From a virus (taxonomy: Duplodnaviria; Caudoviricetes), in the IMG/VR virus record IMGVR_UViG_3300011008_002712: a stretch of DNA of 64,000 nt; one strand, given 5' to 3'. Position 1 is the stretch's first letter, and the number at the start of each line of letters is the position of its first letter. Shown piece by piece: positions 14,268 to 32,010 of this stretch. The notes beneath the pieces were generated by a model. It was not told the DNA's origin. It made no database searches and saw only the letters and a list, made by a program, of their open reading frames with translations. A program made the position numbers and the translations under genes.

Positions 14268-14300
14268 AAGAGAGAGGATTTTTAAATCCTCTCTTGTTTT
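14268..14300. terminator. Bidirectional terminator between telA and dnaE-C
   Basis: AGAGAGGATTT/AAATCCTCTCT stem flanked by A and T runs. Confidence 0.7.
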
Positions 14301-16792
14301 TATTCATTTTCTTCTAAGTTATCGCCATTTATCCATTTTTCATTAATTTTTTTCACTTTATCATGGTCTATATATTTTGCACTCAATCCGCCATAGCCTT
14401 TATCTCCAGAAATAACTAACAAATTACCTTTTTTCAAAATATCAGAATTATTTTTGTACATATCATTCCACATTGTAATTCCGACAATTTCTAAAGGTGT
14501 TATTAAAATTATTCTATAATATTCATTGCCCTTTTTCGAACGTTTTTTAACAACTTCTTTTATCAATCCTCCAATTTCAATACTATCTCCATCTTTTATG
14601 TCTTCTAAAGACTTAAGATGCTTTTTGTTTTTAAACGGATGATCAATAAAGCTAATTTCAAATGTATCTAAATCATCAAGATAACATTTAACCTTATTAA
14701 ATTTCGTTCTATATATTTTTGTTTTTGCTTTAACAAATGCATGAACAAATTTATCTTTAACTTCTTCTTTTACTACTTCAAATATACCTTTTGGTTTGCA
14801 TCTTGTTTTTTCTACATCATCAATTATTTTCCCAAATTTTTCAAGAAATGGTTCTGGAACAACAACACAATTGGGATTCTTTTTTTCTTTAATAAGTTCG
14901 TCTTCCCCAAATGCATTTAAATATTTTCCAGCAACAGTTGTCAAATCAACTAAATAATTTGGTATACTAGTTTTTGAATTTGTCTCTTGATAACTTTCAA
15001 ACCATTTCCTTTGCTGTGCTCTATTCATATAAAGCAAACAACAATCATCTTTTTCTTCTACTTTTATAAATTCTTTGCATTTATCATCTACAATATCTTT
15101 TGGAACTTGCAATGGCAAGCTTTCAAATGCCCCTATTTGAATACATACATCAACATTTCGTTTATTGTGTCCTTGGCTTCCAGTTTTTTCAAAAAATTCT
15201 TGTATCGTTGAAAATGGTTGCGCATTCATAATGTCTGCTGCGCCAGCTGCGCCCAATCCTTTTATGCAATTCAATCCCATTCTAATAGAATTATTATCGA
15301 TATTTTCTATTTTTGCTTCAAACTTACTTGCAGAAATATCCGGCGGCCTAACATCAATATTAAATGCTCTTGCTTCTTGCATGCAATTATTAAAATGTTC
15401 CAACTTCTCATTATTAAATAACACAGTAAAAAACACTAATGGATAATTTGCTTTTACCCATGCACACCAATATGCGATGTACGAATAACATACTGAGTGC
15501 GATTTGTTAAATAAATAAGCACTATTATCAATGATAGCTTGCGCTATTGTTTTACATGCTTTTTCTGGTATTCCACGTGATAATCCAGTCGGTATAACTT
15601 CTTTATTAAATTTTTCTACCCATGGTATGTTCTTCTTTTTATCAGGTTTTTCAAGTGCTCTTCTATATATATCAGCTTCACCAAAGTCAATTCCTAATAA
15701 TTCAGCAATAAGTCCCATCACTTGTTCTTGATACACTATACCACCCATCGTGGGCTCCAATATTTTATCAAATGCTGGCCAAATTTTCTTTAGTTTACTT
15801 GGATCTTTTTTTGCTGCGCAATATTCATCTAACCCAGAAGTACCAGGTCGTATAAAAGCATTTACAGCCGATAATTCTTCCATCGTACGCGGCTTTATTT
15901 TTTTTATTACAGGAACAGCTGCCGCACCATCCATTTGAAACACACCACGAAGATATTTTGCGTCACATATTAAGTCCCAAGCTTTATCGTTATCTAACGG
16001 TATAGACATCTGTTTTAAATCTTTATGATAATATTTATTGATTAAATTTAACTCATCGCAAATAATATCCATTGTGCGTAATCTAAGTATATCGTATTTC
16101 ATGCCACCAATTTGCTCTATCTCATCTTTACAATACATGCTTCTATACCATGTATTATGTGATGAAGTTTCTACAGCCGGTGCAACTGGAGTCAAATCAG
16201 TTATTTCCATATTAGATGGAGTTATTACAATTCCTGCTGGATGTTGAGATACAGATTTCGGAAGATTCATAAATGTTTTCAAATAATCTCTTAGATGATA
16301 ATTTTCATATTTATCTAAGAATTCATTCACTTCTTTAACATCTTTTATATCATCAAATGTTTTTGCATCTTTGTCAATTTTTTTAGCTGCGAAATCAACT
16401 TCTGCAAGTGGAATTTCAAAAACTCTCGCAATATCTCTCAAAGCAGCTTTTGGTTTCATATATTGAAAAGTAGCTATATTACAACAATGATTTTTACCAA
16501 ATGTTTGATTCAAAAAATCATATATTTCATCACTTCTAAGATAGGAAGTATCTCCGTCAATATCTGGTACATGACCGACTCTACGGGGATTCAAAAATCG
16601 TTCAAAAAATAAATCATACTCAAGAGGATCTACTTGAGTAATATCTAGTGCATAATTTAAAAGTGATCCAGCACCAGAATTATGCACTATTAAACCGTCA
16701 ATATTATATGAATGTACATCTTTTACTTCTAAGTCGTAAACTTTCCCTTTGTATTGAAAAGTTTTTTTAGAAGTAAGTCTTTTATATTTCAT
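14300..16792 (-). CDS. dnaE: DNA polymerase III alpha, C-terminal half, fused to C-part of a split intein
   Basis: IntC ...VYDLEV..HSYNIDGLIVHN then SGAGSLL, FERFLNP, PDIDGD, QHPAG, KYDIL, GVFQ, FNKSH, C-terminal OB fold; AAAGGA RBS before ATG 16792. Confidence 0.95.
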   Translation of the reverse strand: MKYKRLTSKKTFQYKGKVYDLEVKDVHSYNIDGLIVHNSGAGSLLNYALDITQVDPLEYDLFFERFLNPRRVGHVPDIDGDTSYLRSDEIYDFLNQTFGKNHCCNIATFQYMKPKAALRDIARVFEIPLAEVDFAAKKIDKDAKTFDDIKDVKEVNEFLDKYENYHLRDYLKTFMNLPKSVSQHPAGIVITPSNMEITDLTPVAPAVETSSHNTWYRSMYCKDEIEQIGGMKYDILRLRTMDIICDELNLINKYYHKDLKQMSIPLDNDKAWDLICDAKYLRGVFQMDGAAAVPVIKKIKPRTMEELSAVNAFIRPGTSGLDEYCAAKKDPSKLKKIWPAFDKILEPTMGGIVYQEQVMGLIAELLGIDFGEADIYRRALEKPDKKKNIPWVEKFNKEVIPTGLSRGIPEKACKTIAQAIIDNSAYLFNKSHSVCYSYIAYWCAWVKANYPLVFFTVLFNNEKLEHFNNCMQEARAFNIDVRPPDISASKFEAKIENIDNNSIRMGLNCIKGLGAAGAADIMNAQPFSTIQEFFEKTGSQGHNKRNVDVCIQIGAFESLPLQVPKDIVDDKCKEFIKVEEKDDCCLLYMNRAQQRKWFESYQETNSKTSIPNYLVDLTTVAGKYLNAFGEDELIKEKKNPNCVVVPEPFLEKFGKIIDDVEKTRCKPKGIFEVVKEEVKDKFVHAFVKAKTKIYRTKFNKVKCYLDDLDTFEISFIDHPFKNKKHLKSLEDIKDGDSIEIGGLIKEVVKKRSKKGNEYYRIILITPLEIVGITMWNDMYKNNSDILKKGNLLVISGDKGYGGLSAKYIDHDKVKKINEKWINGDNLEENE
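16679..16792 (-). mobile_element. Split intein C-fragment (38 aa)
   Basis: Block F VYDLEV, block G IVHN, Ser+1; Lys/Arg-rich. Confidence 0.92.
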
Positions 16793-16879
16793 CCATATCA
16801 TCCTTTCTTCTATTTATTTTATAAAAATTATTTTCTTTTTATAAAGAAACATCTATCAATTTCTTGAAAATTTATTTTT

Positions 16880-18580
16880 TTAGTTATTACATTCAATCCA
16901 TTCTTGATTAAACGTCGGTTCTAATGAATAGAAAAATCCATTTATTTCTTTATGATTCATTGCTTTTGTTTTACTAATTTTTAATTTTTTGAATTCATCA
17001 AACATTTCTGTTTTTGTATGATATGTTTTCACGATATTACCATCATGATCAAACTTATAACATGTTTTTGAATGTTTACACGGAAAAGATTTTTCTGTAT
17101 AATTTCTGCTTCCTTTTTTAAAAATCATTCCGTGATATGTTTCTCCAGTTTTGACACATTTTTCCAATCTATAGTGTGTCATATTCAATTTTTCACAAGT
17201 TTCATTATTTGTCTTAAATTCATAAATTAATTCATTTTCTTCATTAAATACTTTAACTGGGACACCATTTACTGCATTTTCACCTTTTTTGTTGAACATC
17301 CCATTTTTTTCACCAGTTGTAGATTTTTTCCAATGTTCAATCTTATTTTTTGTGTCTTCTGTCCATTCAAAATAATGATCTTTTACCAGTAAATGTTCAT
17401 TTATTGCATTTTTAATTTCTTGTTTTGTCAAAGAAAATTCATTTTCTAACGCAACTATAGACAAAAATGTTTTGACAAATTTCATGTTTTTATCATATAC
17501 ATTAATGTGATATCCATTGATGGATTTTTCCACTTTTTTCCCATGCATGCCATTCAATTTTCCTCGTGTTTTACCATTTTTTATTCTTTTTTTGCTTAGT
17601 GCTTTTTTCTGTTCCTCTGTCCATTTATTTCCATAATTTGGATTTTTTTCTCCAGTTACAGCTTTGGACATTTTTTGTTTAAAAAACTCTCGTTCTTTCT
17701 TTGTCATGTTTTTCCAAGCTTCTTGTTTTATCTTGCTTTGATGCAAACATTCTTCTTTTGATCTAACATTATTTTTTCTTTTAAATTTTACATCGTTTCT
17801 AATTTTACCAAAACGTTTTGTAATTTTAAATAACTCATATTCATTATTTGAATATCCCAAAATATCAATTTTTTCGTTTTCATTGATAAGAGAATCAATA
17901 AATTTTTGAGAAAAATCTTTAGTAATTACATAATCACAGATCTTAGAATCTGTTAATAAGTTTGTAATTACATAAGCAAATCCAATTGAATCGTTTTTAG
18001 GCATTAATTCATTATTCCAAGATTGTGGCATCGATGTTATCATCAAATGTGCATTATCAAAAAAAATCAAATTTTCTTGATTTGTGACGTGAATAAAGTC
18101 TCTCATTCTTTTTAAATCTTTTAGCGTCAAAAATTGATAATTCATATTATGTTTTAAACAAAAATCTTTAGCAGCTAATGATTTAATTTTTGACCATTCA
18201 TCAATTTTTCCTTTTATTTCAATGATAGAATTATTGACAATGAAATCAGGATAGTAAAAATGACTTTCATTTCCAGTTAAATATGGAATTTGAACATCAC
18301 ATCGTTTTATTGGGATGTTATTTTTAATACAATGATGAATAAAGCCTAATTCATAACTACTTTCAAATTTTATCCCATAATAACTACCATGAAGTGTTTT
18401 ATGAGAAACATATTTGTTAATGCATTTATTACATATTGCCTCATACTTATGTTGTCTTGTTTGCAAAGAATTCCACGAAACAACACTCTCTTTGTTACAT
18501 TCTTTACACACTATAAGAACGTTACAATTTCTTTTTTCCGTTTTATGTTCTAAAAAATAATTATAATCGACTGTTTTCAA
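16880..18580 (-). CDS. Putative homing endonuclease: Zn finger + PD-(D/E)XK (TnsA-N-like) + NUMOD3/NUMOD1-like repeats
   Basis: FESSYE..YYPDF..IIEIKG; GEKNPNYG/GEKNGMF repeats; likely TTG start at 18580 aligning with paralog start. Confidence 0.75.
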   Translation of the reverse strand: MKTVDYNYFLEHKTEKRNCNVLIVCKECNKESVVSWNSLQTRQHKYEAICNKCINKYVSHKTLHGSYYGIKFESSYELGFIHHCIKNNIPIKRCDVQIPYLTGNESHFYYPDFIVNNSIIEIKGKIDEWSKIKSLAAKDFCLKHNMNYQFLTLKDLKRMRDFIHVTNQENLIFFDNAHLMITSMPQSWNNELMPKNDSIGFAYVITNLLTDSKICDYVITKDFSQKFIDSLINENEKIDILGYSNNEYELFKITKRFGKIRNDVKFKRKNNVRSKEECLHQSKIKQEAWKNMTKKEREFFKQKMSKAVTGEKNPNYGNKWTEEQKKALSKKRIKNGKTRGKLNGMHGKKVEKSINGYHINVYDKNMKFVKTFLSIVALENEFSLTKQEIKNAINEHLLVKDHYFEWTEDTKNKIEHWKKSTTGEKNGMFNKKGENAVNGVPVKVFNEENELIYEFKTNNETCEKLNMTHYRLEKCVKTGETYHGMIFKKGSRNYTEKSFPCKHSKTCYKFDHDGNIVKTYHTKTEMFDEFKKLKISKTKAMNHKEINGFFYSLEPTFNQEWIECNN

Positions 18581-19781
18581 ATTAACACTCATTTCTATTC
18601 GCACTATCACATATAATGTATCTTCCGTCATTCAAAATCAACTTGTTATTCATCATTTTCTTTTTATTAAATTTTAATTCTTTTTCTGCCGATGTAATTG
18701 TTGGAAATTCTTTTATTAATTGATTATCACTTGAAAATAACATTACCTTTTTGCCGCCTTTATTTTTTGTGCTACAACGTTTTTGTTTACAGTGTTTTTC
18801 GTAAATTTTTTTAGAACGTTCAGTGAATTCCAAATAACATTCATTATTTATTGGCAAATGATTAATTACAATGTTTTTTAGTTCTTTTCTATTTAAATTA
18901 AATCTTTTTAGAGCTATATAAGTGTTTAAAATATAATCAATGATTTCACCATTCGAATTCACTAAATTATAGTCATATCCTGTAAAAGATTTTTCTTGTT
19001 TTTTACCGAACATTGGATTCTGTTTACCAAACATCCCGTTTTTACTGCCAGCATTTTTTCCTTTTAATTTTTCTCCTATGTTTCTTCGTTGTTCTTCATT
19101 CAAATGATTACCAAACATTGGATTTTTTGTTCCAGAATTCATTTCAACGTACTTTTTCTTATATAAAAAGTTTTCTTCTTCTGTTGGAGTTCTTGGTAAA
19201 TTGTTTATTTTTTCAATTGTGATGTTTTTTAAATGAACCAAGTCATATTCAAAATTTTTATATCCTATGATTTGAATTTCGTTATGAATAATATCATTAT
19301 TACATAAAGAAATTAATGTTTTATCTGTTGCTTTTCCAATGCATATATCACAAAAAACATTGTTCGTTAAATAATTTTTTATCAAATAAACAAAACCCAA
19401 ATAATTTTCTGGTTCTTTTATTTTATTCATTTCAAAACTATCTGGGTATGATGTTATCATTAGATGTTCTTTGTCAAATAAAATTAAATCTTCAAAACTA
19501 GAACAAAAAATAAAATTATTTAAATTTTTTAAATCTTTTCTTGTCAACAAGACATAATTTTTTAAAGAATTTTTAGCATACTGTTCTTTTTGTTTTGCAT
19601 TATCATTATAAATTCCTTTAATTTCAACAATGTTATTTTCAACTAAAAAATCTGGGTGATATGTTCTTTTTATTCCATTTTCATCAACATATTTTACTAT
19701 CCCAGTGTATCTTTTGATGTTTAATTTGTTTTTAATGCAATGATGAATAAAGCCTAATTCATAACTACTTTCAAATTTTAT
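18330..19781. repeat. 44-bp identical direct repeat (18330-18373 and 19738-19781)
   Basis: CAATGATGAATAAAGCCTAATTCATAACTACTTTCAAATTTTAT occurs in both endonuclease genes. Confidence 0.9.
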
Positions 19782-20006
19782 TCCGTAGTAATTCCCTCTC
19801 AAGTGACTTTTGGAACGATATTTCAAAATGCATTTATTGCATATTTGTTGATAACGTACATTTTGATTTCTAGAAACTAAATTTTTCCAATGTACTAATG
19901 ACTTTTGTTTACAATCTTTGCAAATTATTTCTACTAATCTATTTTGTTTTTCTGTTCTATGTTCTAAAAAATAATGATAATCAACTGTTTTCATTCTCTT
20001 CTCCAT
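18582..20006 (-). CDS. Putative homing endonuclease, paralog of 16880..18580
   Basis: FESSYE..YHPDF..IVEIKG; GTKNPMFG/GSKNGMFG repeats; IKEFPTITSAEKEL NUMOD1-like. Confidence 0.75.
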   Translation of the reverse strand: MEKRMKTVDYHYFLEHRTEKQNRLVEIICKDCKQKSLVHWKNLVSRNQNVRYQQICNKCILKYRSKSHLRGNYYGIKFESSYELGFIHHCIKNKLNIKRYTGIVKYVDENGIKRTYHPDFLVENNIVEIKGIYNDNAKQKEQYAKNSLKNYVLLTRKDLKNLNNFIFCSSFEDLILFDKEHLMITSYPDSFEMNKIKEPENYLGFVYLIKNYLTNNVFCDICIGKATDKTLISLCNNDIIHNEIQIIGYKNFEYDLVHLKNITIEKINNLPRTPTEEENFLYKKKYVEMNSGTKNPMFGNHLNEEQRRNIGEKLKGKNAGSKNGMFGKQNPMFGKKQEKSFTGYDYNLVNSNGEIIDYILNTYIALKRFNLNRKELKNIVINHLPINNECYLEFTERSKKIYEKHCKQKRCSTKNKGGKKVMLFSSDNQLIKEFPTITSAEKELKFNKKKMMNNKLILNDGRYIICDSANRNEC

Positions 20007-20130
20007 TTTTTATTTATTTTAAACATAAATTAAAAAAAAATAAAAAGAAAATTGCATTTTTGCTACAAAGTAGTATGCTTCATAATTTTTTTAATAAAAT
20101 AAATTACTTTACTGAAAGGAGCAAAAATAA

Positions 20131-20502
20131 ATGAATTTAGAACAACAAGTTAAAAACGCTGGTCCTCATGAATTGGTTTTAATGCTTTATGATGGTTGCA
20201 TTAACTTTATTGATAAGGGAGAAGAGGCACTCGTTAATAAAGACTATGAAACATCAAATAATTTTCTTCAAAGAGCAGAAAATATTTTGACAGAACTTAC
20301 TATCAATCTCGATATGAAGTATGATATTTCTAAACAATTATCTTCTCTTTATTGTTATGCTTATGATCGTTTAGTAGAAGGTAATTTGTTTAGCAAAACA
20401 TCTCTAATTGAAGAAGCAAAGAAAATTGTTTCAGAACTTAGAGATGCATGGATTCAAGCAATTAACAAAGTAACTCCAGAAGAAATTGAAGCGTTCGCAT
20501 AA
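20131..20502 (+). CDS. fliS: Flagellin export chaperone FliS homolog
   Basis: A.P.ELVLMLYDGCI, RAENILTEL..LD, L.SLY.Y...RL, ELRDAW. Confidence 0.9.
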   Translation: MNLEQQVKNAGPHELVLMLYDGCINFIDKGEEALVNKDYETSNNFLQRAENILTELTINLDMKYDISKQLSSLYCYAYDRLVEGNLFSKTSLIEEAKKIVSELRDAWIQAINKVTPEEIEAFA

Positions 20503-20520
20503 TTTTTCTCTTTATATCTA

Positions 20521-20548
20521 AAGGAGGATGCATTGCATCCTCTTTTTT
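20521..20548 (+). terminator. Intrinsic terminator after fliS
   Basis: GAGGATGCA/TGCATCCTC followed by T run. Confidence 0.7.
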
Positions 20549-20606
20549 ATTTTTAACATCAAAATTTATTTATTTTATAGAAGAAATTTTTGGGAGGCGC
20601 TTATCA

Positions 20607-21137
20607 ATGGGAAGAGTGAAAGTAGGTGTAAGAACAAAAGAACTCATTGAGAAGATTGACAAACCTCAAGAATGTCAAGAAGTTAAAAAACCGCAAGAAG
20701 AAGCTGTGCAGGAAAAACCAAAAAGAAAAATATCTTTTATAAGATGTTTTGTAAAAAACTTTGATATTCTTATGTGCTTGTTTAGAAAATTTGTACCAGA
20801 ATTCATCATAATGGCTTTGCTTGGTTTGTTTGGATTATGGGGTTTTGGTTATATAATGAATGGATTATATGGAATGGCGTTTCAATTAGATAGTAGCTTA
20901 GCTGCAGTTGGTGCCATTTCATCAGCTGGCGTTCTTTCTTTAATTAGATATTTGACAGATAGTAAATTGAACAGCGTACTGGGATCTGCTCCAACTAAAG
21001 CATTAACCGATAAACTTAATAGATATATAGCTGGTAAAGATCATTTTGTTGATGAAAACAAAAATGGAATAGATGATAGAAAAGAATGCAATGAATTTCC
21101 TGGAAAGAAAGACATGAACTATAAGGATGGTGAATGA
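20607..21137 (+). CDS. Two-TM membrane protein, probable holin
   Basis: Two hydrophobic segments; directly upstream of amidase. Confidence 0.55.
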   Translation: MGRVKVGVRTKELIEKIDKPQECQEVKKPQEEAVQEKPKRKISFIRCFVKNFDILMCLFRKFVPEFIIMALLGLFGLWGFGYIMNGLYGMAFQLDSSLAAVGAISSAGVLSLIRYLTDSKLNSVLGSAPTKALTDKLNRYIAGKDHFVDENKNGIDDRKECNEFPGKKDMNYKDGE

Positions 21138-21669
21138 TATGTCAAGTTGTTTGATAAATGCTGGACATCATGTAACATACGACGCGGGAGCCGTCTCTCC
21201 AAGGACTGGCCTTAGAGAAACAGATGTAGCATTAAAAGTAAGCAATCTAATTGTTGATTATCTAAATGCTGCTGGCGTATATTCTCAACAATTTCAAGCA
21301 AATGAATTAGATGAAATCACAGATTATGCTAATAACAATGAATTTGATTTATTTGTAAGCATTCATTGTAATGCTGCTAGTAATTATTCTGCACAAGGCA
21401 CTGAAACTTGGTATTATCAAGGAAGCAGCAACAGCCAACATCTGGCTTCTTGTATTCAAGATCAAATTATAAATTCATTACCTGTTACTGATAGAGGAAT
21501 CAAACCAACTACAGGATTATATGTGCTTAAACATACAGATATGCCAGCAGCTTTGGTAGAATTGGCATTTATAACAAACGAATACGATGAAAGTCTTTTA
21601 TCAAATGATCATTATATAGATGAATTTGCAAGAGCTATTGCTCGAGGAATTACTGATGCGTTACAATAA
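21127..21669 (+). CDS. N-acetylmuramoyl-L-alanine amidase (Amidase_3), probable endolysin
   Basis: INAGH, E, FVSIHCNAA, GTETWY, LYVLKHTDMPAALVELAFITN. Confidence 0.92.
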   Translation: MVNDMSSCLINAGHHVTYDAGAVSPRTGLRETDVALKVSNLIVDYLNAAGVYSQQFQANELDEITDYANNNEFDLFVSIHCNAASNYSAQGTETWYYQGSSNSQHLASCIQDQIINSLPVTDRGIKPTTGLYVLKHTDMPAALVELAFITNEYDESLLSNDHYIDEFARAIARGITDALQ

Positions 21670-21679
21670 TGTATAAATA

Positions 21680-21705
21680 AAAAGAGGGAATTTTCCCTCT
21701 TTTTT
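21680..21705 (+). terminator. Intrinsic terminator after amidase
   Basis: AAAAGAGGGAA/TTCCCTCTTTT followed by T run. Confidence 0.7.
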
Positions 21706-21714
21706 CTTTTTTAA

Positions 21715-21746
21715 CTATTTACATTTATTTTTTTTTATGATAAAAT
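21715..21746 (+). promoter_or_regulatory. SigA-type promoter, CTA-extended class
   Basis: CTA-TTTACA-N17-TAAAAT with TG. Confidence 0.7.
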
Positions 21747-21759
21747 TGCATTAGAAAGG

Positions 21760-22578
21760 ATGATTAAAATGATTATTGGAAGCCACTTATCTACATCTAA
21801 AGGGTTTTTTAAAATGGCACAAAACGCCGTTAATATGAATGCCAATACTTTTGCGTTTTTTATTCGCAATCCTCGTGGATTTAGCGCAAAGGTTATAGAC
21901 AAGGATGATGCAAAAAGAATGAATGATTTATTAAAAGAATATAATTTTGGTAAATTGGTTGTGCACGCTCCCTATACATTGAATTTGTGTTCAAATGACA
22001 AAAAAATCTTAGAGGTTTTTAAGGATGATTTACAAAGGATGGAAAATTTTCCTGGTAATTACTACAACCTCCATCCAGGAACTCACGGTGGGAAAGGAGA
22101 AATGACAGGCATCATCAATGTTATTTGCAATTTAAACGATGCTCTTACCAGTGACTTGAATACTATCGTCCTTATTGAGACAATGGCTGGAAAAGGCACC
22201 GAAATCGGCAAGACATTTAAAGAAATAAAAAATATGATTTCTGGAGTTAAGTTAAAAGATAAGATTGGAGTCTGCCTTGATACATGCCATGCTTGGGATG
22301 CTGGATATGACATGAGAAACATAGACACTGTGCTGGAAGAATTCGATAAAGTAATAGGTATAGATTATTTAAAAGCAGTACATTTAAATGATAGTAAGAA
22401 CGAGATGGGCTCTCATAAGGATCGTCACGCTCAATTGGGTGAAGGCAAAATCGGATTAGAAGCACTAACCAAAATTGTCAATCATAAACATCTTAAAAAA
22501 TTGCCATTTATTTTGGAGACACCAAATGTTTCTATGCACGCTGGAGAAATTGCTTTGATGAGGCAACGAGAAGTTTAA
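21760..22578 (+). CDS. nfo: Endonuclease IV (AP endonuclease)
   Basis: GSHLS, HAPY, HPG, ETMAGKG, DTCH, HLNDSK, DRH, ILETP. Confidence 0.95.
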   Translation: MIKMIIGSHLSTSKGFFKMAQNAVNMNANTFAFFIRNPRGFSAKVIDKDDAKRMNDLLKEYNFGKLVVHAPYTLNLCSNDKKILEVFKDDLQRMENFPGNYYNLHPGTHGGKGEMTGIINVICNLNDALTSDLNTIVLIETMAGKGTEIGKTFKEIKNMISGVKLKDKIGVCLDTCHAWDAGYDMRNIDTVLEEFDKVIGIDYLKAVHLNDSKNEMGSHKDRHAQLGEGKIGLEALTKIVNHKHLKKLPFILETPNVSMHAGEIALMRQREV

Positions 22579-22703
22579 AAATGAAAACTAAAATTAGAAT
22601 GAATGTATAAGAGTTTTTATAACGGGAGAATTTATAGTTTTTCACGTTATTAATTGACTATGCCGTTTGACTATCATAATTTATGTAAAATGGAGGTTTT
22701 TAA

Positions 22704-23371: not shown

Positions 23372-23519
23372 GTAGAATATTGCATAATGATTCAATGCAT
23401 AGTAAACTTTACAATGTAATGCACAGACTGTTACATATACAAAATTTTAAAAAATAAATTATAAAAACGACGTTTATTTATAATAAAATGTTATTATAAA
23501 TGATAGGAGATAATTAATA

Positions 23520-23960: not shown

Positions 23961-24034
23961 AAAACAATGATAGTACTTATTTTATGCTATACAAATATTA
24001 TTAAATAAATTTGTTTAACAATTTTTTTATTTAA

Positions 24035-24065
24035 CTATTTACATTTTATTGTTTTACTGTATAAT
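24035..24065 (+). promoter_or_regulatory. SigA-type promoter, CTA-extended class
   Basis: CTA-TTTACA-N16-TATAAT. Confidence 0.6.
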
Positions 24066-24082
24066 ATTAAATAAGAAAGAAG

Positions 24083-24586
24083 TTGGCAATGATGTTTAAA
24101 ACATTAACTAATAAAGTTAAACAAAAATACATTGATTTCGGAAATTTTGTTATTAAAAAAATTTTAAACAACAACTATAAAAATATTTGCGTTTTTGGAA
24201 CATGCTCAGATGATATCAACAACATGGGATGGATAAAATCTATGTATCATTTGCAAGAACTTGATGATGCAACTTTTTATGCGGCATTAAATAAAAATGG
24301 TAAAACTTTAGAGAACATTGTTGATTACGACATGGTAATTCTTCTTGATTTGAAATTTAATAATGATAAGTTTGATATTTCATTCGAAATGATTTCGTCT
24401 AATGATATTGGAATAAATAGCAATGTACCTGTTATTCAACTTCATTATATGTTAAATGATGACAAATTTGAAATTGAAAGAGATTGTAATCTATTTTCTG
24501 ATGGTATTTCTGACGTTACTTTTATAAAAAGTCAAAAATATAGGAAAATTCCAAATGAATTAACAAAACAAGAACTTTTAAATTAA
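24083..24586 (+). CDS. Hypothetical protein, paralog family A copy 1
   Basis: WIKSM(Y/F)H, GKTLENI.DYDMVILL, SDGIS shared with next two genes. Confidence 0.8.
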   Translation: MAMMFKTLTNKVKQKYIDFGNFVIKKILNNNYKNICVFGTCSDDINNMGWIKSMYHLQELDDATFYAALNKNGKTLENIVDYDMVILLDLKFNNDKFDISFEMISSNDIGINSNVPVIQLHYMLNDDKFEIERDCNLFSDGISDVTFIKSQKYRKIPNELTKQELLN

Positions 24587-24627
24587 TCAAAAGCAAAAAC
24601 ACAGACATAAAAATGAAAGATGAAATA

Positions 24628-24654
24628 AAAAGGAGAGGTTTTACCTCTCTTTTT
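24628..24654. terminator. Bidirectional terminator
   Basis: GAGAGGT/ACCTCTC stem with A/T flanks between convergent genes. Confidence 0.65.
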
Positions 24655-24660
24655 CAATAG

Positions 24661-25155
24661 TTAAAAAAGATTTTTTTCTTCCTGTTTATCCAATTCCCAG
24701 TAATGTTTTTTATATTTTTCAATACTTTTTTTATCTTTTGCATCGCTTATTCCATCTGAAATCAAAATATCGTATTCTTCTGGTATGAAATGATCTTTTG
24801 CGAAACAATAATCGATTTGTACCAACGGAACATTATTCTTAATGCCAAAGTCGGAAGAGTTTTTATCTTCAAACATAATGTCAAAATTTCTGCAATTAAA
24901 TTGCTGATTAATGATTATACCCATGTCGCATTGAGACAAATCGTTCAAACTTTTTCCTTCGCAATCTAATGCAGTCCAAATACAAACGTCATTAATCATA
25001 CATCCATGGAACATAGATTTAATCCACCCAACATTGTTAAGATTGTCAGGCAATGCAGAAAACACACCAACATTTTTATAGTTGTTTAACAAAATTTTAT
25101 TAATAATGTAATTTCCTAATGAAACATATTTTTCCTTAAGATTTTCACCTTGCAT
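24661..25155 (-). CDS. Hypothetical protein, paralog family A copy 2
   Basis: GWIKSMFHGC, SDGIS, EEKNLF. Confidence 0.8.
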   Translation of the reverse strand: MQGENLKEKYVSLGNYIINKILLNNYKNVGVFSALPDNLNNVGWIKSMFHGCMINDVCIWTALDCEGKSLNDLSQCDMGIIINQQFNCRNFDIMFEDKNSSDFGIKNNVPLVQIDYCFAKDHFIPEEYDILISDGISDAKDKKSIEKYKKHYWELDKQEEKNLF

Positions 25156-25191
25156 TACGATTGCCCCTTTCTAACATGATATCTAATTTTA

Positions 25192-25223
25192 ATTATATCA
25201 TAATTTTAAACAAAAGTAAATAG
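25192..25223 (-). promoter_or_regulatory. SigA-type promoter, CTA-extended class
   Basis: CTA-TTTACT-N17-TATAAT with TG; abuts hairpin 25221-25248. Confidence 0.7.
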
Positions 25224-25296
25224 CTTAAGAAAATTTTTTCTTAAGCTATACAAAATTAGTTAATCAATTGTTAATTTCTTTTTTCAATTTCAATAG

Positions 25297-25803
25297 TTAA
25301 AAAAGATTTTTTTCTTCTTCTTGAGTCAAATCCCAATAAGGTTTGTTATGTTTCTTTATACTTTGAATTTTTTTAGCATTGCTAATCCCATCTGAAACGA
25401 GATCGCTATCTTCTACATAAAATTTATCAGTATCAAACAAATAATTAATCTGAATGATTGGAACTTGCCCCGCAACACCAATATCGTCTGAAATTTTATC
25501 TTCATACGTGACATTGAATTCGTCATTATTGAATTGCAAATTAAGCAAAATCACCATATCATAATCAGCAATGTTCTCTAAAGTTTTTCCTTTGCTTTCC
25601 AATGCAGCTTCAATAACAGCATCTCTGATTTCGCATCCATGAAACATGGACTTAATCCAAGAAATATCATTACTGCGATCAGACGATGTTGCGAAAACGC
25701 CAATGTTTTTGTGTTCGTTGTTTATAATGCTATTGACAATATGATTGCCAATAGCAATGTATGATTGTTCCAATTTTTTGTCAAGTTGTCTGCATTTGGC
25801 CAT
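25297..25803 (-). CDS. Hypothetical protein, paralog family A copy 3
   Basis: WIKSMFHGC, SDGIS, EEKNLF; start ATG 25803 after AGGAGG. Confidence 0.8.
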   Translation of the reverse strand: MAKCRQLDKKLEQSYIAIGNHIVNSIINNEHKNIGVFATSSDRSNDISWIKSMFHGCEIRDAVIEAALESKGKTLENIADYDMVILLNLQFNNDEFNVTYEDKISDDIGVAGQVPIIQINYLFDTDKFYVEDSDLVSDGISNAKKIQSIKKHNKPYWDLTQEEEKNLF

Positions 25804-25836
25804 TTTGTTATTACCTCCTAAATAATCTTTTATTAT

Positions 25837-25868
25837 ATTATACCATACGTACAAGAAAAAGTAAATAG
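25837..25868 (-). promoter_or_regulatory. SigA-type promoter, CTA-extended class
   Basis: CTA-TTTACT-N17-TATAAT with TG; -35 overlaps hairpin 25862-25899. Confidence 0.7.
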
Positions 25869-25902
25869 CCAAAATAAAAATTTTTATCTTGGCTATTTAA
25901 AA

Positions 25903-26763
25903 TTAATCAATTAAATACTTATCACGTTTTTCAATTTCATTATCTACAAAATCTTTAGTATCTTGATATGTTAATTTATTTGTATACATAAACGTATTTC
26001 CATCATTTAACTTATAACCATTTTGTTTGATTTTATCGCGAATTGTTACCCATAATTCACCTGGAAATTTTTGATAAGTCGATTTTGATATTTTCCCATC
26101 TGTATCATATTTGTGTTCTACAACTACAACTTCTTTTTTTCCTGTTTTCATTAAGTAACACTCTTCAAGAAGATATATAATAGGATGTTGAACGCCAATT
26201 GGCGGTAATTGATATCCGAAACAACCAAAACATCCTCTTTCGTCATTGTCAAACCATTCAAATCCTTCTTTTAAAAGCGTTTGCAATAATTCATTGAAAA
26301 TTTGTTCTGTTTGTGATTGAGGCACATCATGAATATCCCTTGTATCACTAATTTTTTGCAATCTTTTTTTAGATCCTTCACATCCGCCAAAATCTCCACC
26401 CATTCCTATATCAGAACCACTCCATTCTCCTCCAGATGTATCTGAAGATGAATCCGTAGCGCCATAATCAGAATATCCATAATAGTTATCATATCCCCAG
26501 TTTCCCCACCAATATGGAGTATACCATATATGTTGCTGAGATTGTGGTAGTTTTTTCACTAAATGTTTTTTAGAATTTTTGCCAATGTAATTTTCATCTG
26601 GATCCATCCAATTTTCAAATTCTTCGCTTTCATTTCTTGGCCAATTATCAGCACAATAAAAGTAAAATGGACAAGGGCCATATATTATGTGATTTTCTGG
26701 TTTTACCATTGTATTATTTTGTGGCCATTCTGAAAATTTTATATTTTTTTGTAATCTTTTCAA
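25903..26763 (-). CDS. Hypothetical protein with Tyr/Trp/Gly-rich linker and repeated basic motif
   Basis: MKRLQK, KKHLVKK, KKRLQK; WYTPYWWGNWGYDNYYG and GGDFGG segment. Confidence 0.7.
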   Translation of the reverse strand: MKRLQKNIKFSEWPQNNTMVKPENHIIYGPCPFYFYCADNWPRNESEEFENWMDPDENYIGKNSKKHLVKKLPQSQQHIWYTPYWWGNWGYDNYYGYSDYGATDSSSDTSGGEWSGSDIGMGGDFGGCEGSKKRLQKISDTRDIHDVPQSQTEQIFNELLQTLLKEGFEWFDNDERGCFGCFGYQLPPIGVQHPIIYLLEECYLMKTGKKEVVVVEHKYDTDGKISKSTYQKFPGELWVTIRDKIKQNGYKLNDGNTFMYTNKLTYQDTKDFVDNEIEKRDKYLID

Positions 26764-26766
26764 TAT

Positions 26767-27087
26767 TTACACCCCAAAATATAATGCATATTTATTTAAT
26801 ATATATAATCTTAGTTCTTCAATTTCTTTTTCTATTTTATAAATAAATTTATTGTAATTTGCAAAGTTATTGAAAATAAATTGATGAAAAAATTTCTTTT
26901 TTAAAAAAATTAAAAATATATCAAATTGTCTTGATTGTTCAAAACTATTTATAAAATCAGGAACAAAATTTGATATATTTATAATATCATTAGAAATGCT
27001 AATTGCCAAATTACATTTTTCAATATTAAATTTTAAAATTATCAAAAAAAACGTTTTTTTCTTTTTAAAAGATTTTACTACTATCAT
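26767..27087 (-). CDS. Possible hypothetical protein
   Basis: 106-aa ORF with TAATG overlap; very AT-biased composition. Confidence 0.4.
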   Translation of the reverse strand: MIVVKSFKKKKTFFLIILKFNIEKCNLAISISNDIINISNFVPDFINSFEQSRQFDIFLIFLKKKFFHQFIFNNFANYNKFIYKIEKEIEELRLYILNKYALYFGV

Positions 27088-27851
27088 TATAAATATCCCG
27101 ATTTTTTTGCTAGTTCGTCATATGCTCTAATTAAATTATCGTCGTCTAACTCATGATAGCAATTTATGACAAATTGAGCAAATTCTTGATGATTTAACAA
27201 ATAATGTGTTTTCTGATTATCACTACTCATATATTCTATATTAATTCTATACACATAATGATTGTTTTTTTCAATCTTTACTTTAAATAATGAATCAACT
27301 TGATCTTTTGCGTCATATGCAGTTCGTAAATCTACAAACATAGTATGGCAATTATTATAATATGCATGATCATTATACATAAGCAAAAATGGATATTTCG
27401 CAGAATTCAAATATTTGTCAATGTCTTCTACATTAAACACACATTCCATATGTTCTTTTCCAGATGCAAAAAAATGTCTTCTTATAGCTGTTGGACCAAG
27501 CATTTTAACATCAACTGCTATATTAAAATCTGATTGAAAATCTATTGATGAATAATTAAAATTATAGTCGTCAGTTGTAAAGATATATAAATCATGATCG
27601 CCCATATATTTAAAAAGTCTTCCGAAAAATGGATTCCTTCCAAATTTAATTTCTCCTATCCTGCCTTCAAGTAATCTCCCATTTATGCCAGATAAATCCC
27701 ATTTATGGTTTTTCAATCCATGATAAATTTGTATGGTTTCATCATGAAAAATCGGAGATGTTTCAATCAAATTTTTCATATATTGTGAACGATATTTTTT
27801 TAACAAATTTGATTTGAAATTTTCCATATCATTCCTCTTGTATAAAATCAA
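27087..27851 (-). CDS. Hypothetical protein, possible PD-(D/E)XK nuclease
   Basis: GRLLEGRIGE...IDF...AVDVK pattern. Confidence 0.5.
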   Translation of the reverse strand: MILYKRNDMENFKSNLLKKYRSQYMKNLIETSPIFHDETIQIYHGLKNHKWDLSGINGRLLEGRIGEIKFGRNPFFGRLFKYMGDHDLYIFTTDDYNFNYSSIDFQSDFNIAVDVKMLGPTAIRRHFFASGKEHMECVFNVEDIDKYLNSAKYPFLLMYNDHAYYNNCHTMFVDLRTAYDAKDQVDSLFKVKIEKNNHYVYRINIEYMSSDNQKTHYLLNHQEFAQFVINCYHELDDDNLIRAYDELAKKSGYL

Positions 27852-28395
27852 AAATTTCTTTATTCATCATTATTAATTGAAGCAATTTCTTGCCAAAGAG
27901 TTTATCATCATTTTCTTCATATTCTAAATTATTTTCTTCTAACATAAGTTTTGCAATTAAAACAAACATATTACTCAACTTATATTCATTACATCCGTTT
28001 TTTACATACAAAATATAATTCTCTAAATCAATTTTATTGACCAAACCGTATTCTATTTTAAAATTTAACCCATTAAAACAAATCTTTTTTGCATTGCATT
28101 CATTTCTATAACAAGAAGATATAAAATCTTGGTTTATTTGTACAAAACTAAGAAAATCGTGAGAAAGTAATTCATTATATGTTTCAGAATTCAATGTATG
28201 CAACGAAGAATCATAGAGAAGAGCATGCATAATTTCATGAAAAATAGTTTCTTGTTTTCTTTGAAGAGACAAGCCATCTTTAATAAGAATGACTGTCTCT
28301 TCGTATTTTACCAATCCATTGCAAAGAGAATTTGCATATTCTATGCGATCTACAAAATTAATGTCGTAGTATAGCCCATTTATAAAAACATTCAT
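27829..28395 (-). CDS. HEXXH metallopeptidase-like protein
   Basis: QETIFHEIMHA..E. Confidence 0.7.
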   Translation of the reverse strand: MNVFINGLYYDINFVDRIEYANSLCNGLVKYEETVILIKDGLSLQRKQETIFHEIMHALLYDSSLHTLNSETYNELLSHDFLSFVQINQDFISSCYRNECNAKKICFNGLNFKIEYGLVNKIDLENYILYVKNGCNEYKLSNMFVLIAKLMLEENNLEYEENDDKLFGKKLLQLIMMNKEIFDFIQEE

Positions 28396-28832
28396 GACAA
28401 TTTCTCCTTAATGATATTAGAAGCTAATTTCCCATCGTAAGTGCCAGCATGTTCATTTTTCAAACGATTCATAATAACACCAATAGATTTCTTATCTACA
28501 CTTGGTAGTTCGCTAATATAATTTGAAATGATTTTATCGAGCTCTTCTTTAGAAAGCTGTTTTGGTATATATTTTTGAAGAAGTTCAATCTTATTTTTAT
28601 ATTCCAGCACTTTTGATGGATCTTTTTTATTAAGTAGATCTATAACTTCTTCGGTTTTAGATTGGAAATTTTTTAAAATTTTAATAGCCTCGGCATCTGT
28701 AGTCTCTCTATTTCCATTGTTTTTACCAAAAGCAATAACATCTGCATACATTGTAGAAAGAAAACTAACAACATTAGATTGTTTATTCTTCCTAGCAGTA
28801 TCTAAATCTTTCTTAATTTCTTGTGCAATCAT
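28392..28832 (-). CDS. GatB/YqeY domain protein
   Basis: IKKDL..ARK, ELLQKYIPKQLS.EEL, IGVIM..LK, YDGK; start ATG 28832. Confidence 0.85.
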   Translation of the reverse strand: MIAQEIKKDLDTARKNKQSNVVSFLSTMYADVIAFGKNNGNRETTDAEAIKILKNFQSKTEEVIDLLNKKDPSKVLEYKNKIELLQKYIPKQLSKEELDKIISNYISELPSVDKKSIGVIMNRLKNEHAGTYDGKLASNIIKEKLS

Positions 28833-28872
28833 TTTATTTACTCCCTTCTGATTATCAAAACATATTAATAAT

Positions 28873-29376
28873 TCATTGTGCAAGATAACAATTATTGTTA
28901 ATAATGCACTTTTTTGCTAATTTATCAAATGCTTCACAAGCAATACAATTATCTTCATGTTCTTCATCTTTTATTAAAGATAAATCTTTATGAATAACAA
29001 TTGGAGAAAAACCATGAATTTCATCATATAGTATTCCTTCTGGAATATCGTTATAAAGATAAATTTTCTTAGCATTCATATAGGCTTCATACATTTCAAG
29101 AAATGTGGCACCGCCAATATAATTGATTTTATTTTCTATAGTAAGATTAAATACAAGCACAGCATCTACTTGAGAAATGACATTGGCACTTTTTTGATAC
29201 ATAGATTTCTTAAATTGTCTATGTGCTTCTTCACCTTTTGCCCAAGCTTCTTTTTCTGCGTCTGCATTGTCAATACAATTTGGAAGAAATACTTCATGAT
29301 TCAGCGATTCTAACTTATTTTTTAAATCATTTACATAGCAGTAAGATTTTTTACTGCAAATTATCAAAATTTTCAT
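28873..29376 (-). CDS. Nucleoside 2-deoxyribosyltransferase / nucleotide N-glycosidase-like protein
   Basis: L...HEVFLP, ISQVDAVLVFN, YIGGATFLEM.EAY..KKIY; start ATG 29376 after GAGGTGG. Confidence 0.65.
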   Translation of the reverse strand: MKILIICSKKSYCYVNDLKNKLESLNHEVFLPNCIDNADAEKEAWAKGEEAHRQFKKSMYQKSANVISQVDAVLVFNLTIENKINYIGGATFLEMYEAYMNAKKIYLYNDIPEGILYDEIHGFSPIVIHKDLSLIKDEEHEDNCIACEAFDKLAKKCIINNNCYLAQ

Positions 29377-30508
29377 TTTCCACCTCACAACTCTTAATAA
29401 GAAATAATAATAAAAACATTTTAGAATGTATGACCTTGTCGTACCAACGAAAAAATGAATTATCATTTTTTTTATCAAGTTCGTTAAGATTTACATTCTG
29501 ATAACGTATATAGAAATCAATTAATTCTTTAGCAGCTTCTTTAGATTCTATATTTTCAAATTTTTTTTGAATTTTTTTAACAAAACTATTTTTATCCCAT
29601 AAAAATGATTCAATTTTATCTGTATTCCAAGCATAAGGCACTGATGTAATAATTAAATCGTGTGGTTCAAAAATCAATAATTCTTCTGGCGTAAGAAATG
29701 TTATGTCTAAATCATTCCGAGTGATAATTTTGAATTTTTTGTTTCTTCTCTCGCAATATTGCATTGCATATTCCATTTTTTTAGTCTCAAAATATGTTTT
29801 TACATCGCCTTTTATTTCAAACAAAGTATCATTTATTTGAAAGTCTGGTGTGTATATATGCCATTCATTATTTGCGTTTAGATATGGTATTTGTTCTGTG
29901 CAGTAAACAACGTTTTTATCTTCATTTTGATATAAAAACGATAATTCATAGCTGCTTGCGAAAAACCATTTTTTACGGAAAAATCCTTTTAAAAATCTTC
30001 CTTTGCCAATGCTTCTTTTTAGTGCAAAAAATTTATCCTTTTGAAACGTTAAAGATATAGATTTTTTTATTTTATCTTTTACACTTTGACTAGATTGTAC
30101 TGCTTTTTGAGCCTCACTGTTTGTAGTTTTCCATTCATCTAAAGATGTCACATAATTCATTATACAGTCATTGCAAATTTGTATATTGTTTGCATATTTC
30201 GAATGAATTATTTTGTCGATTCTACGAATATCTTTTTTTCCACATTTTTCACAAGTAATTTCAACAAATAATTTTGTGCTTTTTGATAAAACATCTCTAT
30301 TTTTTTGAAAAACTTCCCAAGAAAAAGGATTATTACGAGGCCCATAGTACAATGCATCAGGTGTTAATTTGTCTTTGTATAAAGTGTTTAGCACTCTAAA
30401 ACATCCAGAACAAATATTGGGATCATACCCTTGCGATATCTTTTTATTTTTGCTTTTTTCTGATTGTATAAAATTTTCTTTGCACCTAATGCATTGCATT
30501 GTTTTCAC
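29351..30508 (-). CDS. Putative free-standing endonuclease (Zn fingers + PD-(D/E)XK), directly after dnaE-N
   Basis: CxxC pairs, FASSYE..YTPDF..LFEIKG; same family as the genes at 16880 and 18582. Confidence 0.75.
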   Translation of the reverse strand: MKTMQCIRCKENFIQSEKSKNKKISQGYDPNICSGCFRVLNTLYKDKLTPDALYYGPRNNPFSWEVFQKNRDVLSKSTKLFVEITCEKCGKKDIRRIDKIIHSKYANNIQICNDCIMNYVTSLDEWKTTNSEAQKAVQSSQSVKDKIKKSISLTFQKDKFFALKRSIGKGRFLKGFFRKKWFFASSYELSFLYQNEDKNVVYCTEQIPYLNANNEWHIYTPDFQINDTLFEIKGDVKTYFETKKMEYAMQYCERRNKKFKIITRNDLDITFLTPEELLIFEPHDLIITSVPYAWNTDKIESFLWDKNSFVKKIQKKFENIESKEAAKELIDFYIRYQNVNLNELDKKNDNSFFRWYDKVIHSKMFLLLFLIKSCEVENENFDNLQ

Positions 30509-30510
30509 CT

Positions 30511-32010
30511 TTAAATTTCACATATAACATCATTAATTTCTAACTTATCGGCTTCAATCCATTGAGGAATTCTTATGCCATTATCAAAGTCTTTAGCTTT
30601 TATTGCTAAGATTTTATGATCTTTTGTGACACCATCAATCATTTTATCTTCAATTTGAAGTTGTAATAACTTTTCGTCTACATCATAAATAAATTTATTA
30701 ACAACTTCATGAAGTTTTTCATCTTTAGCATAGACAAGCTCACCAACATTTACGTCTCTAATTTGTTTTAACCCATACTGGGTTAAAACAAAATTATTAT
30801 CTTTAAAGCAACCCCTTCCAGGACCACATGGTATTTTAGCTTTATTTCTAATAAAATCAATTAAGCTTCCATATAAAATGAAATATGTCTCAAATCCCAT
30901 CTCTTTAATGACTTTCATTTCATGTGCAGCTCTAATTCTATCTTTTTTTGATTGTGCTCGTTTTTTTGTCAACCCATTAAGAAAAAGATATTCAAGATAT
31001 TTAGTTTTTTCTAACTCTTTTCCTCTAGATTCTTTTGATTTTTCTTTCCACTCATTATAAACACTATCATTTTTTGGTATTTCTACACTTGGCAAATAAT
31101 GAACGTCTGTAACAAATTCAACACTACATTGTTTTGCTATATCTTCAGAAAATTCAACAGCACTTAAAACCGCTTTTTGATCTAAAACTTCGTGACCAGA
31201 ACATTTAAATGCATTTAAAATTTCATCTTTTGTCATAATATAATAAGTATTCCCGCCATAAGTCCATCTATCTGGATTTGACATGACATCTTTACTCTGC
31301 ATGCAAAGAAGCACATCATGAGCTTCTTTGTGTTCTTGAGTCAAATAATGCGCATCTGTTGTAGCAACTAGTGGTATACCCATTTCTTTTGACAATTCTA
31401 TCAGCACTTTATTTACGATAACTTGATGTTCTATTGCTGTTGGCTGTATTTCTAAATAAAAATTACCATGAAATAATTTATGATAATATTCAATCCATTT
31501 TTTTGCTCCAACTATATCATCATTCATGATGCAACGTGGAATTCTACCAGCAATGCACGCAGACGTCGCTATTAAATCGTCAGTACCAATATCTTCAAGA
31601 CATTTATCGTCAATCCTTGCTTTATAGTAAAAACCTTTTGTTGCAGCTAAAGATGCCAATTTAGAAATTCTTTTATAACCTTCTATATTTTTTGCAAGAA
31701 TTATCATATGCTCATTCTTATATTGACGATAATGTTCAATGTCTTTATTATTCATATCATCTGTTACATAAAATTCTTCTCCAATAATTGGAATTACATC
31801 ATTTTTTTTAGCTTCATTATAATGAAACATAACAGCATATAAATTTCCATGATCTGTTATGCAACTATATACTTGGTGAGTTTCTCCAGTTTTTTTATTA
31901 AATTCATCTGTAATTTCTTTATTACGTCTTACTAAATCTTCTAACCTAAGGCAAGAATCCAATAAAGAATATTGAGAATGAACATGTAAATTGACAAAAT
32001 TATTGGACAT
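30511..32010 (-). CDS. dnaE: DNA polymerase III alpha, N-terminal half (PHP domain), fused to N-part of a split intein
   Basis: FVNLHVHSQYSLLD, ITDHGNLY, ATTDAHY, MGFETYF, CGPGRG then intein CFKDNNFV. Confidence 0.95.
   Translation of the reverse strand: MSNNFVNLHVHSQYSLLDSCLRLEDLVRRNKEITDEFNKKTGETHQVYSCITDHGNLYAVMFHYNEAKKNDVIPIIGEEFYVTDDMNNKDIEHYRQYKNEHMIILAKNIEGYKRISKLASLAATKGFYYKARIDDKCLEDIGTDDLIATSACIAGRIPRCIMNDDIVGAKKWIEYYHKLFHGNFYLEIQPTAIEHQVIVNKVLIELSKEMGIPLVATTDAHYLTQEHKEAHDVLLCMQSKDVMSNPDRWTYGGNTYYIMTKDEILNAFKCSGHEVLDQKAVLSAVEFSEDIAKQCSVEFVTDVHYLPSVEIPKNDSVYNEWKEKSKESRGKELEKTKYLEYLFLNGLTKKRAQSKKDRIRAAHEMKVIKEMGFETYFILYGSLIDFIRNKAKIPCGPGRGCFKDNNFVLTQYGLKQIRDVNVGELVYAKDEKLHEVVNKFIYDVDEKLLQLQIEDKMIDGVTKDHKILAIKAKDFDNGIRIPQWIEADKLEINDVICEI
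30514..30810 (-). mobile_element. Split intein N-fragment (99 aa)
   Basis: Cys1 CFKDNNFVLT..G.KQI.DV.VGE.V, block B TKDH, WIEADKLEIND then stop. Confidence 0.92.

Follow-up and report, generated by a model that had tools for sequence, protein, structure and literature searches.

How does a phage come by a complete replicative polymerase when the only gene for it in the genome lies in two pieces, 13.7 kb apart? The question is raised by a window of 64,000 nucleotides (the whole stretch of DNA analyzed here) from a Caudoviricetes genome, IMG/VR record IMGVR_UViG_3300011008_002712. In it, the coding sequence for DnaE, the alpha subunit of DNA polymerase III (Pol III alpha), is divided between two open reading frames (ORFs), the first ending in the N-terminal part of an intein (IntN) and the second beginning with the C-terminal part (IntC). 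The window belongs to a virus record of 416,024 bp with a completeness rating of 99% and a GC content of about 28%, and pieces of the sequence turn up in public runs, most of them gut metagenomes of sheep and goats. We think it highly likely that this phage's only DnaE would be made as two polypeptides and joined by protein trans-splicing, a reading that draws on sequence comparison and structure prediction. The parts of the two halves, with lengths in amino acids (aa), are as follows.

30511-32010 (-): dnaE-N/IntN ORF, 499 aa (P0001)
30811-32010 (-): dnaE-N extein, residues 1-400, with the PHP domain (Pfam PHP, E=1e-34) and the start of the palm (PF07733 positions 2-66)
30511-30810 (-): IntN, 99 aa (C401-I499) and its TAA stop, with block A Cys1, block B TKDH and an acidic tail
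14300-16801 (-): IntC/dnaE-C ORF, 833 aa as called (P0002)
16801-16807 (-): ribosome-binding site GAAAGGA (AAGGA core), 8 nt 5' of the ATG at 16792
16679-16792 (-): IntC, 38 aa (MKYKRL...VYDLEV...HSYNIDGLIVHN), with blocks F and G and a His-Asn terminus
14300-16678 (-): dnaE-C extein, 792 aa from SGAGS (Ser+1), with the remainder of the palm, the fingers, HhH and the C-terminal region (PF07733 positions 66-259, DNA_pol3_finger, HHH_6)

The extein of the N half closes with IPCGPGRG, GPGRG being residues 396-400, and the intein opens directly after G400 with C401, the class-1 nucleophile, a Cys that is invariant in relatives. Block B follows the TxxH pattern (T462-K-D-H465), its Thr and His invariant in split and contiguous alleles, and the ORF ends in EINDVICEI and a stop codon. 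For the C half, the true start is the fourth codon, ATG 16792, because the ribosome-binding site lies 8 nt upstream of it and all homologues of this half start MK(Y/F)K; IntC is therefore 38 aa long and the dnaE-C gene spans 14300-16792 (-), giving a natural chain of 830 aa. IntC terminates in YNIDGLIVHN, which is followed by SGAGSLLNYALD, so that the +1 residue is Ser (VYDLEV...HSY...LIVHN|S); its match to the intein_Cterm model TIGR01443 scores 16.8 bits, against a cut-off of 15.6. Each half is thus a gene of its own, with a stop after IntN and a ribosome-binding site and start before IntC. IntN has a net charge of -6, of which the distal half contributes -4, and the Lys-rich IntC has a net charge of +4.

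The two exteins abut to the residue, because PF07733 matched only twice in the whole genome, the N half covering its positions 2-66 and the C half 66-259. Other models agree: TIGR00594 is covered from 1 to 363 by the N half and from 363 to 929 by the C half, and the NCBIfam DnaE models from 2 to 361/363 by the first ORF and from 360-366 onward by the second. Across the combined halves the DnaE models are covered continuously and the domain order PHP, palm (PF07733), finger, HhH is intact; direct reading of dnaE-C also finds the palm motifs PDIDGD and KYDIL and an uninterrupted FNKSH. The predicted spliced product has 400 + 792 = 1192 aa. An earlier note on this DNA, made from the letters alone, had proposed a 400-aa dnaE-N leading through GPGRG into a 99-aa IntN with Cys1 and TxxH, a 38-aa IntC (VYDLEV...VHN) ahead of SGAGS, an ORF for each half, an acidic distal IntN paired with a Lys-rich IntC, a spliced DnaE of about 1192 aa with GPGRG-SxAGS restored, and a Ser+1 site other than the cyanobacterial one, where FNKSH is uninterrupted here. 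All of this architecture was recovered.

The halves lie on the same (-) strand in N-to-C order, separated by 13.7 kb and about 19 ORFs. Since the source is a metagenome-assembled genome, the separation might have been produced by misassembly or by a chimera of strains, with the gene contiguous in the real phage, an outcome that the earlier note had named as fatal to its proposal. An independent assembly in ENA (NODE_1, 380,737 bp, coverage 25) contains an identical N-half protein and the same downstream genes, and three independent assemblies agree. Logan contigs from other runs span the gene ends at 95-98% identity: X1 record 8 (29854-30688) and X4 record 30 (30266-30645) run from the IntN stop through to the next gene, and X1 record 1 (16655-18329) runs from the upstream gene P0164 through to IntC. 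Among the contigs of public runs, none joins the two intein ends (30511 to 16792). With a stop or a ribosome-binding site and start at each broken end, and with the same layout in relatives, an artefact has next to no probability: the separation of the halves is real. All apparent contig joints were disregarded, their sides being no longer than 25 nt and AT-rich, and none of them linking the intein ends.

Relatives place the split in a wider context. Word-index searches limited to the intein parts recovered additional N halves with IntN at their end, P0003 and P0004, whose intein regions are 82% and 70% identical, along with additional C halves that open with a 38-aa IntC (P0006 to P0010); a scan of viral contigs with a single protein found no relative, but an alignment-based scan did recover one. 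IntN is conserved in P0003, P0004 and L011, and can be aligned to the N-terminal portion of the contiguous inteins that occupy this site. Both halves also occur, on a single strand, in a phage of 504,279 bp that was assembled independently by JGI/IMG-VR and ENA: dnaE-N lies at about 287.6-289.1 kb and dnaE-C at about 262.5-264.9 kb, some 22.7 kb apart as computed from the contig ranges. The DnaE halves of that phage are 74% and 68.5% identical to those described here, and its gene order is syntenic on both flanks and partly so within the interval. As the split is present in both phages with conserved synteny, the unlinked arrangement is older than their divergence. In another relative contig (L019), the C half does not lie within 4 kb.

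These comparisons bear on a further explanation, that the 13.7-kb interval is excised from the DNA during infection and a contiguous intein-containing gene recreated. The same strand and N-to-C order of the halves would allow it. Neither direct nor inverted repeats of at least 12 nt were found at the two edges of the interval, no recombinase was found within it, its genes are syntenic in the 504-kb relative, and the joined form does not occur in the contigs; we regard repair at the DNA level as very improbable. The only 11-mer shared by the edges, at 30553 (in the distal region of IntN) and 16892 (in the last codons of P0164), encodes WIE in both places. It is probably a chance match, but might represent a second leftover of an intein tail.

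The same insertion site is occupied by contiguous inteins elsewhere. Gp329 of Bacillus phage G has an uninterrupted intein of 245 aa (GPGRG|C...AVHN|SAAGS), and P0011 (GCA_004196295.1) a mini-intein of 133 aa that aligns end to end with IntN plus IntC (99 + 38 = 137); in that alignment, the division into fragments of 99 and 38 aa is consistent with a split at the loop where endonucleases are inserted. ORF116 of Lactococcus phage 949 (1429 aa) probably carries a contiguous intein at this site as well. An exhaustive phmmer search of 1.84 billion representative sequences, with 40 extein residues plus IntN as the query, gave 602 matches at E<=1e-3. Among the best 150 of these 602, at least 33 proteins have the split form, ending 88-111 aa past GPGRG|C, and 32 have a contiguous intein running from GPGRG|C to HN|SxAGS; the latter, again among the best 150 of the 602, comprise 8 mini-inteins of 129-184 aa and 24 inteins of 303-482 aa, presumably with an endonuclease domain. 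These matches indicate that the intein allele is widespread and that splitting at GPGRG|S is common among uncultured phages. The search of related phages proposed in the earlier note therefore turned up the same split in the 504-kb relative and in other lineages, together with an allele that is widespread in both its contiguous and split forms.

In phage G, dnaE (L001, NC_023719: 239245-250008) has two more breaks besides the contiguous intein. Gp329 stops just past ERFLNPTRG, 5' of the catalytic PDxD motif; next come a GIY-YIG-like homing endonuclease (gp330), gp331 (158 aa), about 5 kb of other genes and gp339 (606 aa), a layout that suggests introns or further splits. On the contig of P0011 (L010, GCA_004196295.1 SDBS01000023.1), that protein ends past FLSPSRGG, and about 8.4 kb downstream comes the C part of DnaE, which is 1031 aa long and has another intein; an adjoining SpoVR-like gene has two LAGLIDADG inteins. 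P0010 (1045 aa, from a Logan contig), which begins with the same IntC, also contains a contiguous intein with an HNH-like region at FNK|C...VVCN|SH, three residues from the cyanobacterial split site. Directly 5' of a related IntC-dnaE-C gene, at L009:1-100, a CRISPR-repeat-like sequence (GTCGCACC...GGTGCGTGAAT) is present twice, with about 36 nt between the copies, and the pair could be a phage-borne mini-array or the sign of a chimeric contig.

Are the intein halves competent to splice? Three further N halves and five further C halves, and the contiguous relatives too, show no variation at the residues on which class-1 splicing depends (Cys1, the block B Thr and His, the block F Asp and His, the HN terminus and Ser+1). 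The ratio of nonsynonymous to synonymous substitution (dN/dS) is 0.12 and 0.22 for IntN in two relatives and 0.05-0.31 for the exteins, values that are rough given a dS of 0.9-1.2, near saturation. Conservation of IntC equals or exceeds that of the adjacent palm extein (identities of 84% and 68% vs 80% and 52%). Taken together, these comparisons indicate that the intein halves are under purifying selection.

They also speak to the idea that the split dnaE is a decaying, non-functional gene in a phage that uses the host replisome, which would agree with the further breaks of dnaE in phage G and another relative and with the mobile nucleases that crowd this locus. Both ORFs are full-length, however, with PHP, palm (PDIDGD, KYDIL), finger and HhH intact; the low dN/dS of the exteins and the conservation of the architecture in several lineages point the same way, and we consider decay quite unlikely.

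Structure prediction was applied to the contiguous allele as a stand-alone domain, and to the window's own IntN and IntC as a complex. The contiguous allele was modeled as a HINT domain (predicted local distance difference test, pLDDT, 90.2; predicted template modeling score, pTM, 0.84), and its top neighbors in the Protein Data Bank (PDB) are all inteins or HINT domains, with gp41-1 first (template modeling score, TM, 0.78-0.89; 24% identity) and BIL, NrdJ-1, DnaB and Npu DnaE next. By sequence, too, the solved chain nearest to the contiguous relative is gp41-1 (E=6e-7). The split halves themselves match Pfam Hint and Intein_splicing below the cut-off, and a phmmer search of the PDB with IntN alone gave nothing significant; the contiguous relative was needed as the query to reach solved inteins. 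In the predicted complex of IntN (residues 394-499) with IntC (residues 1-46), the score was 0.90, vs 0.04 for the best of three controls, a level attained by 58 of 80 solved complexes and by 2 of 110 mismatched pairs. At least 92% of contacts are shared between runs, with a partner pLDDT of at least 76.

Docking of this kind is also what would be expected if the intein halves served as a non-covalent clasp, holding two DnaE chains together as a two-chain enzyme without splicing. Against such a clasp, every splicing residue has been kept across lineages that are only 50-80% identical, and the contiguous alleles at the same site must splice to give a working enzyme. The GPGRG-SxAGS loop binds the incoming nucleotide, a role that argues against a purely non-covalent clasp: judged from that role, an unspliced HINT domain of about 137 aa within the loop would very probably block catalysis. 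A clasp is accordingly improbable in our view, if somewhat less so than decay of the gene.

Predicted from sequence conservation and models, trans-splicing is very probably the best reading, carried out by a class-1 intein at GPGRG|S that would be active and is naturally split. Two points weigh against it, beyond the roughness of the dN/dS values: homologous split-intein complexes have been solved and are in the PDB, so the docking score may reflect resemblance to structures that the predictor had seen; and the host Pol III could replicate the phage, so that replication would not necessarily depend on splicing. As to the last, no family A (PolA) or family B (PolB) polymerase was matched across the genome rated 99% complete, and there is no second DnaE in it, the two partial PF07733 matches being the only ones. 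The window itself is a replication and nucleotide-metabolism module that encodes a DnaB-like helicase, an NAD-dependent ligase, both topoisomerase II subunits, SbcCD, thymidylate synthase and dCMP deaminase. From the absence of another polymerase gene we infer that replication may depend on trans-splicing.

By the trans-splicing scheme, DnaE-N(1-400)-IntN(99 aa) would be transcribed with nucleotide-metabolism genes; IntC(38 aa)-DnaE-C(792 aa) would be transcribed from the same strand, 13.7 kb further downstream. Association of the acidic IntN with the basic IntC is predicted in silico; the two would fold together into a HINT domain and splice by the class-1 route: an N-S acyl shift at Cys1, attack by Ser+1, cyclization of Asn38 and an O-N shift. 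This would yield a contiguous polymerase of 1192 aa with its dNTP-binding loop, GPGRG-SGAGS, made whole again. The split would have arisen from the contiguous intein still found at the same site in other phages, before the divergence from the 504-kb relative, and free-standing PD-(D/E)XK homing-endonuclease genes would later have invaded both broken ends.

What, then, lies between the halves? Both broken ends of dnaE carry nuclease genes, which the earlier note had missed.

29351-30499 (-): P0165, 382 aa, candidate free-standing PD-(D/E)XK (TnsA-like) homing endonuclease (PF08722, E=2e-5; phrog_945 'endonuclease')
29354-29392 (-): remnant of the ancestral tail of IntN (CEVENENFDNLQ), which at present closes the P0165 ORF at its 3' end and matches the IntN end of L004
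20007-29350 (both strands): intervening cargo of about 16 ORFs, including YqeY, an M78-like peptidase, Amidase_3, AP_endonuc_2, FliS and unknowns, partly syntenic with the 504-kb relative
18582-20006 (-): nuclease P0163, 474 aa, PD-(D/E)XK core and NUMOD3 by profile matches
16880-18631 (-): nuclease P0164, PD-(D/E)XK core and NUMOD3/NUMOD1, likely start M14 at 18592, directly upstream of IntC

P0165 is the ORF directly downstream of IntN. The three nucleases are paralogues, P0163 and P0164 being 40% identical and P0165 and P0163 28% over about 200 aa (E=3e-12), and the catalytic motif E...PD...ExK (E83, D119, E128-x-K130) is invariant in all three. Their profile matches are weak (TnsA_N, PDDEXK_3, Phage_endo_I and the PHROG 'endonuclease'), and a PDB sequence search with the nuclease core gave no significant match. 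The family has exactly three copies in the whole 416-kb genome, all of them on the two broken dnaE ends. None of the three occurs in the 504-kb relative, and P0165 is absent from L004 and L011; another relative has an HNH endonuclease gene in the equivalent place 3' of the N half.

The arrival of P0165 can be read from a comparison with L004. In that relative, IntN ends ICEVENEDFDNLQ, followed by a stop and by the same DNA that the window has after P0165. In the window, IntN closes with ICEI-stop, after which come AGGTGA, an ATG and the nuclease ORF, which itself ends SCEVENENFDNLQ-stop; TGTGAR is present at both edges of the insertion. Given the L004 tail and the shared downstream DNA, a cassette of about 1.1 kb (roughly 29393-30519) therefore landed in the acidic tail of IntN. 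On this alignment, the cassette supplied IntN with a new stop and reads through into the old tail, which is evidently dispensable. The insertion is thus precisely delimited for P0165; 5' of IntC, where the tandem pair P0163/P0164 lies, the DNA has no homology to the 504-kb relative.

Part of the DNA between the dnaE halves is on the opposite strand. This block encodes a homologue of the flagellar chaperone FliS (20131-20502 (+), E=5e-32), an Amidase_3 lysin (21127-21669 (+)) and an AP_endonuc_2 TIM-barrel protein (21760-22578 (+)).

How much of this is new? Our literature searches found no description of this particular DnaE site or locus, but the kind of system is already known, the allele is common in metagenomes, and the novelty is modest. 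Split inteins away from the cyanobacterial site have been described from three phage-like DnaE loci in metagenomes, with IntN of 88-105 aa, IntC of 33-54 aa and free-standing homing endonucleases at the break, together with a model that predicts a later uncoupling of the halves ('step IV') (Dassa, London, Stoddard, Schueler-Furman and Pietrokovski, 2009; PMC2677866). The present locus resembles them in its phage-type DnaE broken inside an intein, its non-cyanobacterial site and its associated free-standing candidate homing endonucleases. It is not, however, a compact fractured gene in the sense of those authors: their halves flank a single endonuclease gene at one locus, whereas here 13.7 kb and about 19 ORFs intervene and paralogous nucleases occupy both ends. 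GPGRG|S may or may not be among their three DnaE sites. The site is distinct from the cyanobacterial one, as claimed in the earlier note, and that note's claim of novelty was overstated in view of the 2009 loci and the spread of the allele in metagenomes.

Naturally split DnaE inteins have been known in cyanobacteria since 1998 (Ssp and Npu DnaE; Wu et al., 1998; Caspi et al., 2003; both as cited in PMC2677866). They share with the phage pair the host protein, unlinked N and C genes, fragments of about 100 and about 36 aa, and charge complementarity. Theirs are cellular and interrupt the finger region before CFNK with Cys+1, whereas ours is viral and lies in the palm at GPGRG|S with Ser+1, outside that family; the similarity is distant (with the contiguous relative, a phmmer E of about 1e-4; when structures are aligned, an identity of about 22%). 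Gp41-1 (PDB 6qaz, 6riz), the closest solved structure, has in common Ser+1, a phage-metagenome origin and a charge-zipper design, and differs in its helicase host protein, its identity of about 24% and its compact fractured locus. The inteins of phage G gp329 and P0011 share the insertion point (GPGRG|C...HN|S(G/A)AGS) and homologous blocks F and G (YKG.VYDL.V...SY....L.VHN), but each is a single chain (245 and 133 aa, respectively) and splices in cis. The split PolB intein of Nanoarchaeum equitans (Choi et al., 2006, as cited in PMC2677866) likewise serves a replicative polymerase encoded by two unlinked genes with an intein half on each, although that is an archaeal family-B polymerase with an unrelated site. 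The PolIII-alpha insertion points surveyed by Novikova et al. (2015) cluster in the finger domain, in contrast to the palm nucleotide-binding loop interrupted here. A 2026 study of gut 'Jug' jumbo phages reports DNA polymerase genes split by endonuclease genes, trans-splicing not being analyzed there (PMC12880540), and a putative PolB split intein flanking an HNH gene is on record from a Pseudomonas jumbo phage.

The most original element of the locus is a single nuclease family exclusive to both intein ends, together with a legible insertion scar in the IntN tail. As aligned, the P0165 insertion fits the Dassa et al. (2009) model of intein-targeted endonuclease invasion. A more speculative extension, which we put forward as a tentative possibility, is that the locus is a snapshot of the passage from a compact fractured gene to an unlinked split gene: the PD-(D/E)XK family would target the coding sequence of the intein halves, break and repair would have brought cargo between them, and the 99 + 38-aa Ser+1 pair would in addition be fast and orthogonal to Npu DnaE and gp41-1. 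Targeting of the intein halves is suggested because all three genomic copies of the nuclease sit there, one inside the IntN tail.

If active, the pair would be a new Ser+1 split intein with a short IntC of 38 aa and less than 25% identity to any solved intein, and the dozens of clusters at 50% identity would provide natural variants in which speed and orthogonality could be screened. A huge gut phage may, moreover, depend for its only polymerase on post-translational ligation across two separate transcription units. The locus also appears to keep the footprints of mobile nucleases attacking intein genes, which bears on the 2009 model of gene breaking. None of these findings overturns current understanding.

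Three further genes of this genome deserve mention. An SF2 helicase of 619 aa (ResIII/DEAD/Helicase_C) is interrupted by a contiguous mini-intein (Intein_splicing, residues 210-348) at G000:C1:92845-93261 (L016:556-2415), about 2.7 kb beyond the window. Within the replication module is a free-standing HNH gene, a 371-aa ORF at window positions 54203-55318 (-) that matches HNH-endonuclease PHROG families only. A full TelA protein is encoded at 13141-14265 (+) of the window (E=3e-108).

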